Positions 19,588 through 19,616 of a DNA stretch of 64,000 bases are shown one piece after another. Both the position numbers and the translations under genes were made by a program. Under the pieces are notes generated by a model. It searched no databases, was not told the origin of the DNA, and saw only the letters and a program-made list of their open reading frames with translations. Within the stretch, counting starts at the first letter, position 1, and every line of letters starts with the position of its first letter. Source of the DNA: an uncultured Planctomycetales bacterium (lineage in GTDB: Bacteria; Omnitrophota; Gorgyraeia; Gygaellales; Profunditerraquicolaceae); contig CAZRVK010000001.1 in the NCBI GenBank assembly GCA_964603585.1, positions 271,856 to 335,855 on the forward strand, in the 5' to 3' direction.

Positions 19588-19616
19588 CCTTGTAGGGGAT
19601 GGTCTCGACCATCCCC
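19588..19616. repeat. 29-bp motif ccttgtaGGGGATGGTCtcGACCATCCCC containing a perfect 22-bp palindrome. A second copy lies at 40241-40269
   Basis: Seen in sequence in two divergent promoter regions. Confidence 0.7.

Follow-up and report, generated by a model that had tools for sequence, protein, structure and literature searches.

Three short GC-rich hairpins at two intergenic loci of the window, the whole 64-kb stretch of DNA analysed here, are very probably (probability about 0.85) GTAG-tagged REP units in an Omnitrophota host, arranged as a singlet at the first locus (site A) and as a tail-to-tail dimer of two variants at the second (site B). REPs are non-autonomous repeats made of a GC-rich stem-loop and a GTAG foot, which are bound on single-stranded DNA by an HUH/Y1 enzyme called RAYT (TnpA_REP). 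RAYT cleaves near the REP and can join strands, an activity presumed to account for the spread and upkeep of these repeats. Published REP families usually count dozens to hundreds of copies. The window is dense housekeeping DNA with a G+C content of 43.3%, and its PNPase is 77–81% identical to many NCBI proteins named as Candidatus Omnitrophota. A sequence-only reading of this DNA had left the choice between an operator and a REP-like element, and it is the latter that is favored by the anatomy of the units, their GTAG tag, stem covariation, presence/absence polymorphism between relatives and the association with RAYT genes in other organisms.

Unit A occupies 19592–19616 on the plus strand (GTAGGGGATGGTCtcGACCATCCCC), where the GTAG head (19592–19595) is followed by a perfect 10-bp stem with a 2-nt loop (GGGGATGGTC tc GACCATCCCC), forming a 10-2-10 hairpin without mismatch. 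The arrangement GTAGGGGATGGTC-NN-GACCATCCCC present there returns with one mismatch at 40244–40268 as unit B1, also on the plus strand (GTAGGGGATGGTCgaGAtCATCCCt, equal to GTAGGGGATGGTCgaGAtCATCCC), which is the variant of A with one arm mismatch and a 9-bp stem (GTAGGGGATGGTC ga GAtCATCCC). Unit B2 lies at 40274–40298 on the minus strand, where it reads from 40298 to 40274 as GTAGGGGGCGGTCggGACCGCCCCa (GTAGGGGGCGGTCggGACCGCCCC) and forms a 9-bp stem (GTAGGGGGCGGTC gg GACCGCCCC), with the same GTAG head, arm length and 2-nt loop as A and B1. B2 had been described as a second perfect palindrome; it is not a motif of its own but a member of the same family read from the minus strand, with GC/GC at the stem positions where A and B1 carry AT/AT, a compensatory change within the window. 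At site B the two 25-nt units stand tail to tail with a gap of 5 nt. All three units have the 5′ GTAG foot, are single-footed and have non-palindromic loops. The conserved prefix cttgtag, to which sequence specificity had been ascribed, holds up in its GTAG, which is the informative part, while the additional CTT is common to the two plus-strand units only. A CT dinucleotide is found shortly 5′ of unit A (19589–19590) and ahead of B1 (40241–40242), and these may represent the cleavage dinucleotide of a TnpA_REP enzyme.

The recurrence of the motif at two loci is non-random and sequence-specific, as had been proposed: the 21-nt core, with up to three mismatches, was found at 2 loci in the window, as against 0.01 expected from shuffled sequences. 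A scan of the 64 kb for perfect stems (at least 8 bp, GC of at least 60%, loop of at most 8 nt) returned only 19595–19616 and 40275–40294, and the three units are the sole strong GC-rich hairpins within the window. Searching the window for the head plus left arm with one mismatch allowed gave no extra copies. DNA folding predicts small independent hairpins at each site, with two separate ones at site B. Directly after unit A, a GGGG-N12-CCCC stretch (19617–19636, without strand assignment) emerges as a weak candidate for a second unit when site A is aligned with site B. It has the length of the B2 stem-loop and an AT-rich interior, folds as DNA into a stem of 4–5 bp, and falls within a segment that is absent from the close relative L118; possibly it is a decayed REP unit.

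Beyond the window, the palindrome was searched in GTDB (one genome per species) with the bare core GGGGATGGTCNNGANCATCCC, giving at least 116 loci, many of which fall within genes of GC-rich genomes and are due to chance. Among the GTDB matches listed, a GTA prefix, the chance frequency of which is 1 in 64, accompanied 32 of the 84 strand hits with perfect arms as against none of the 56 with imperfect arms. Copies headed by GTAG occurred, among the same listed matches, in Bacteroidota, Clostridia, CPR (Uhrbacteria, Peribacteria), Spirochaetia, Gammaproteobacteria and Anaerolineae, and at least five MAGs were multi-copy, with 6 loci in Uhrbacteria, 6 and 3 in Clostridia, 3 in Bacteroidetes and 3 in Gammaproteobacteria. 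Metagenomes were scanned with the pattern GTAGGGGNNGGTCNNGACCNNCCCC, in which two stem positions per arm were left free, and at least 128 sites were recovered. The free positions were complementary in 116 of the 128 listed sites (about 8 expected), with nine complementary pair types; therefore the hairpin, and not a particular duplex sequence, is the conserved feature. The common form, seen in 92 of these 128, is a symmetric ‘double-foot’ palindrome with CTAC at the 3′ end and a GC centre. By its sequence, GTAGGGG-NN-GGTC-NN-GACC-NN-CCCC is a multi-copy family widespread across many phyla, and outside the window it also sits between co-directional genes and within genes.

Two of the contigs recovered, L238 and L172, are similar to the window in protein sequence. 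The B2 variant occurs as a double-foot palindrome in L238, which is Omnitrophota-like, as well as in L135, L153, L172, L174 and L244. L238 is syntenic with 28–35 kb of the window, the tblastx segments having mostly 45–72% amino-acid identity, and at L238:2495–2524 a GTAG…CTAC REP of the B2 variant lies in frame within the variable linker of a rimO/miaB-like radical-SAM gene, where it encodes VGGGRDRPL; the orthologous gene of the window (28623–29873) has no REP insertion. L172 shares one gene with the window. In L244, six GTAG palindromes belonging to four variants are spread over 14 kb; this contig is tied to the host lineage by base composition alone (G+C 40.5% vs. 43.3% in the window).

In many loci the flanks of the core are locus-specific inverted repeats, giving long perfect palindromes of 50–75 nt (metagenome loci L134, L183, L236, L241 and L243; GTDB loci L010, L025, L027, L090 and L092). 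Some of these have A- and T-tracts resembling bidirectional terminators, and it may be that the palindrome inserts into longer hairpins or nucleates them.

The palindrome family is accompanied by RAYT genes in other organisms. Among the metagenome matches listed, the biggest ORF cluster comprised 12 loci, one of which (L189) holds two copies of the gene. The encoded protein has about 155–205 amino acids with the motifs PNH(x)HGI (NHxH), WQRNYYEH and YIxNNP; it matches Pfam Y1_Tnp, and among the NCBIfam models NF047646 (REP-associated tyrosine transposase) fits best, with a score under the equivalog cut-off of that model. Of the 12 listed RAYT genes, 11 contain the palindrome in frame, a short way past the HUH motif, where it is read as GRGGSRPAPT or, in another frame, as VGAGRDLPL. 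For instance, group 4 RAYT genes with an internal REP are located at L160:5979–6530, L189:4994–5518, L189:8899–9462 and L092:3661–4209, and the gene of L160 is also flanked by two GTAG…CTAC REPs of another variant. The exact GGGGATGGTCGCGACCATCCCC core of A and B1 is present in two MAGs of Uhrbacteria, within one RAYT gene and 36 nt past the stop codon of a second. ORF clustering near the motif at the GTDB loci listed gave no recurrent protein family, and RAYT genes at these loci were later searched by tblastn; an initial pattern for the RAYT Y motif gave no match and was too narrow for subclass 2.4. Within the 64-kb window, tblastn found no RAYT gene.

The anatomy of the window units agrees with published repeats. 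In the parts of the literature drawn on here, the GTAG-REP superfamily comprises 24 families (Nunvar et al., 2010, PMC2817692; Di Nocera et al., 2013, PMC3733652) and is defined by stems of 6–13 bp, loops of 2–3 nt, a terminal GTAG and head-to-head or tail-to-tail dimers (Di Nocera et al., 2013, PMC3733652). Likewise, the window has GC-rich stems of 9–10 bp, 2-nt loops, GTAG at the stem foot, an extragenic location at both loci, an inverted tail-to-tail dimer at site B and stem variants that coexist in one genome. By contrast, both window loci lie between divergent genes, a weak difference at n = 2, whereas the REPs treated in those parts of the 2013 survey are mostly between convergent or co-directional genes, with in-gene REPs also described (PMC3733652). 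The same parts of that survey name the PVC superphylum, which is related to Omnitrophota, but not Omnitrophota itself.

A further counterpart is offered by TnpA_REP subclass 2.4, corresponding to RAYT group 4, with the signature NH[IFV]H / WQ / YIxNNP (Quentin et al., 2018, PMC6006769). The REPs of this subclass have a stem bottom of three G-C pairs and ‘double-foot’ GT[AG]G…C[TC]AC forms, are found in frame within tnpA_REP genes and are scattered over many phyla (PMC6006769). Similarly, the window stems begin with consecutive G-C pairs (GGGG/CCCC) directly after GT[AG]G, and the same palindrome family flanks or enters RAYT genes with the above signature in many phyla, although the window units are single-foot, unlike the common metagenomic form. 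As judged from sequence, the window type appears to match the REPs linked to this group, and the association between the palindrome family and group 4 RAYT genes agrees with the published surveys and is not new. Site B also resembles the BIMEs of Escherichia coli and the REPINs of Pseudomonas, being an inverted REP pair a few nucleotides apart and composed of two variants, like the Y and Z units of BIMEs. Unlike in REPINs, its arms differ (AT vs. GC at two stem positions, plus the mismatch), so that no clean long REPIN hairpin is formed, and unlike in BIMEs no IHF-type linker motif was identified at site B.

Both sites are situated between predicted back-to-back promoters. Site A is flanked by the gene of tRNA-Pro (19400–19476, minus strand) and by a double-receiver (double-REC) gene (19775–20893, plus strand), and site B by a gene for a receiver-OPRTase fusion (REC-OPRTase; 39067–40008, minus strand) and by comF on the plus strand, the start codon of which is ATG at 40376 or TTG at 40340. 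The promoters are predictions of a sigma-70-like consensus scan backed by conservation in relatives. At site A they are TTGAGC-17-TATAAT with an extended TG for tRNA-Pro (19541–19569, minus strand) and TTGAAA-17-TATAAT, with 11 of 12 consensus matches, for the double-REC gene (19705–19733, plus strand), both kept in L118. At site B they are TTGCCT-17-TAAAAT for REC-OPRTase (40176–40204, minus strand), the homologous sequence of which was recognised by alignment in L121 and L122 and by eye in L125, and TTGACA-17-TATTAT, again with 11 of 12 matches, for comF (40340–40368, plus strand), kept in L121, L122 and L125. Unit A is 22 nt away from the predicted –35 hexamer on the tRNA-Pro side and 88 nt on the double-REC side, and the doublet of site B 39 nt on the REC-OPRTase side and 41 nt on the comF side. 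The hairpins are therefore predicted to occupy spacers in which there is neither transcription nor overlap with a core promoter. The distance of about 110–190 bp to the plus-strand genes given earlier needs correction: unit A lies 159–183 nt upstream of the double-REC start (19775) and the doublet about 80–130 nt before comF. Two of the roughly four divergent intergenic regions of the window hold REP units.

Comparison with relatives revealed that the hairpins are lacking from orthologous spacers. L118, the double-receiver protein of which is 90% identical, with flanking nucleotides about 77–81% identical and full synteny across the region compared, retains tRNA-Pro and both promoter sequences at site A and is missing the hairpin. 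The alignment has a 52-nt gap that spans the hairpin and the sequence just 3′ of it, and no GC-rich hairpin was found in the 11.4 kb of L118 examined. An insertion 3′ of a pre-existing GTAG (L118 aaaATGTAGctagag vs. window aaatccTTGTAG plus hairpin) was considered and not adopted, because the intergenic alignment is too diverged for fixing the boundaries. At site B, two of the three relatives are without any hairpin: L124 and L125 (62–63% identity) have short spacers between comF and REC-OPRTase. In the third, L121/L122 (66% identity), this position is occupied by a long hairpin of different sequence, atGTAAGGGACGGTTCTGA-N16-TCAGAACCGTCCCT, with a 14-bp stem. It belongs to a family AGGGACGGTTCT(G/C)…AGAACCGTCCCT with copies at L121:4906–4949, the position of the window's doublet, and at L121:7263–7297, between co-directional genes; this second copy 2.3 kb away indicates that the L121/L122 genome has a dispersed hairpin family of its own. 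The head of the L121 hairpin, ATGTAAGGGACGGTTC, resembles CTTGTAGGGGATGGTC, with 12 of 16 bases common to the heads. It was not adopted as a homologue of the site-B doublet, an old shared insertion and independent insertions being indistinguishable here. Presence/absence polymorphism between relatives is accordingly seen at both sites, with respect to L118 at A and to L124 and L125 at B.

These comparisons weigh most heavily on the idea that the palindrome is a shared operator, through which a dimeric transcription factor would co-regulate the double-REC/tRNA-Pro and comF/REC-OPRTase pairs. Such an operator could look like what is seen here, an almost perfect inverted repeat that occurs in two divergent promoter regions and has a receiver-domain gene next to it in both. 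Conservation in orthologous intergenic regions had been named as the check on it, and the hairpin is absent from L118, despite the high identity and conserved promoters, and from L124 and L125; it is on these ortholog comparisons at both sites that the operator is rejected. The units also lie 22–88 nt outside the predicted –35 hexamers, and in unrelated phyla the palindrome recurs as a generic, dispersed multi-copy repeat, also within genes and with compensatory stem changes, which indicates selection on the hairpin and not on a duplex recognition sequence. Taken together, an operator is very unlikely, and coincidence is the simplest account of the neighbouring receiver-domain genes, since further receiver genes of the window (14784–15448) are without such a motif. 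Even less credit is due to the view that the hairpins either terminate or stabilise short transcripts missing from the annotation, or are what is left of the ends of another mobile element, such as an IS200/IS605 copy or a MITE. GC-rich stem-loops are typical of both, and IS200/IS605 elements end in hairpins that serve related Y1 transposases as recognition sites (PMC8266576). Yet neither strand of any unit is followed by a T-run, neither locus has a terminator-like site according to the promoter/terminator scan, an Rfam search at the gathering threshold gave no match at these hairpins, and both loci are upstream of both flanking predicted promoters; the earlier statement that they are not terminators thus stands. 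As regards mobile-element ends, neither a transposase nor a terminal inverted repeat is present, and similarity does not reach past the 25-nt units.

An alternative nearer to the preferred reading is that the units are REPs by origin which have been co-opted, and are retained rather than merely tolerated, as cruciforms or protein-bound insulators at divergent promoters. Negative supercoiling, built up by divergent transcription, could extrude the cruciform, or gyrase, IHF or a nucleoid protein could be recruited, and the promoters would be insulated, tuned or decoupled. The position of both loci between predicted back-to-back promoters, in two of about four divergent regions, would fit this, as would the binding of REPs by host proteins, described in the parts of the literature drawn on (PMC2817692, PMC3479197), and the different 14-bp-stem hairpin of the 66%-identity relative, the position of which could have been retained for a reason. 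Nevertheless, the argument is built on two loci (n = 2) and one positional coincidence in a relative, while relatives do without a hairpin at both sites and the family elsewhere lies between co-directional genes and within genes; co-option is unlikely overall. In a variant of this idea, RAYT-mediated insertion would itself be targeted to divergent-promoter spacers, because the spacer DNA might be transiently single-stranded.

With the three hairpins taken as ordinary REP units, a RAYT encoded outside the window would make or maintain these copies. It would bind the hairpin with its GTAG foot on single-stranded DNA, and cleave and join nearby. For enzymes of groups 2 and 3, recognition requires GTAG, which guides cleavage of single-stranded DNA at CT or CA beside the hairpin (PMC8266576). 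The insertions at A and B would persist where spacers tolerate them, and here they are probably harmless because the spacer between back-to-back promoters is presumed to be untranscribed and the units to be outside the –35 and UP elements. Several points count against the REP reading: the number of copies, three units at two loci in 64 kb as compared with the dozens to hundreds of published families; the lack of a RAYT gene in the window; the divergent setting of both loci, weak at n = 2; the single-foot form of the units, as opposed to the GTAG…CTAC form dominating the metagenome sites; and the different hairpin of L121/L122 at the position of site B. For annotation, the motifs should be labeled as REP units rather than regulatory sites, and no regulon of receiver-domain genes should be drawn from them. 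The gain is a modest one, a GTAG-tagged REP family being placed in an Omnitrophota genome, along with an unbiased covariation count for a palindrome family that is found in many phyla in company with group 4 RAYT genes.

In addition, other repeats were noted in the surroundings. At 40022–40156, between the predicted REC-OPRTase promoter and its RBS and start codon (40008), a 45-bp sequence is repeated three times in tandem, with two identical copies and one that is 80% identical; each copy has an imperfect hairpin, giving a structured leader of about 165 nt. They are not present in L121, L124 and L125, where the promoter nearly abuts the start codon, and the Logan assembly of the same strain breaks within this repeat. 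The REC-OPRTase itself (39067–40008, minus strand) has 313 amino acids and its fusion is kept in about 10 relatives at 61–66% identity, while most OPRTase homologues are stand-alone PyrE proteins of about 186 amino acids; the fusion suggests phosphorylation-controlled pyrimidine synthesis or a regulatory PRTase. Near site A, an exact 29-bp duplication (19224–19252 and 19392–19420, 168 bp apart) covers the 3′ end of tRNA-Pro and the next 8 bases downstream, and the T-arm/acceptor 3′ end recurs once more in degenerate form at about 19304–19325. These duplications look like the footprint of a past integrase-mediated insertion and excision at the tRNA. Elsewhere in the window, at 26190–26277 and 26252–26379 (minus strand), an FMN riboswitch precedes the ribBA-ribH-nusB operon, and a 44-bp tandem direct repeat (84% identity) overlaps its 3′ side.
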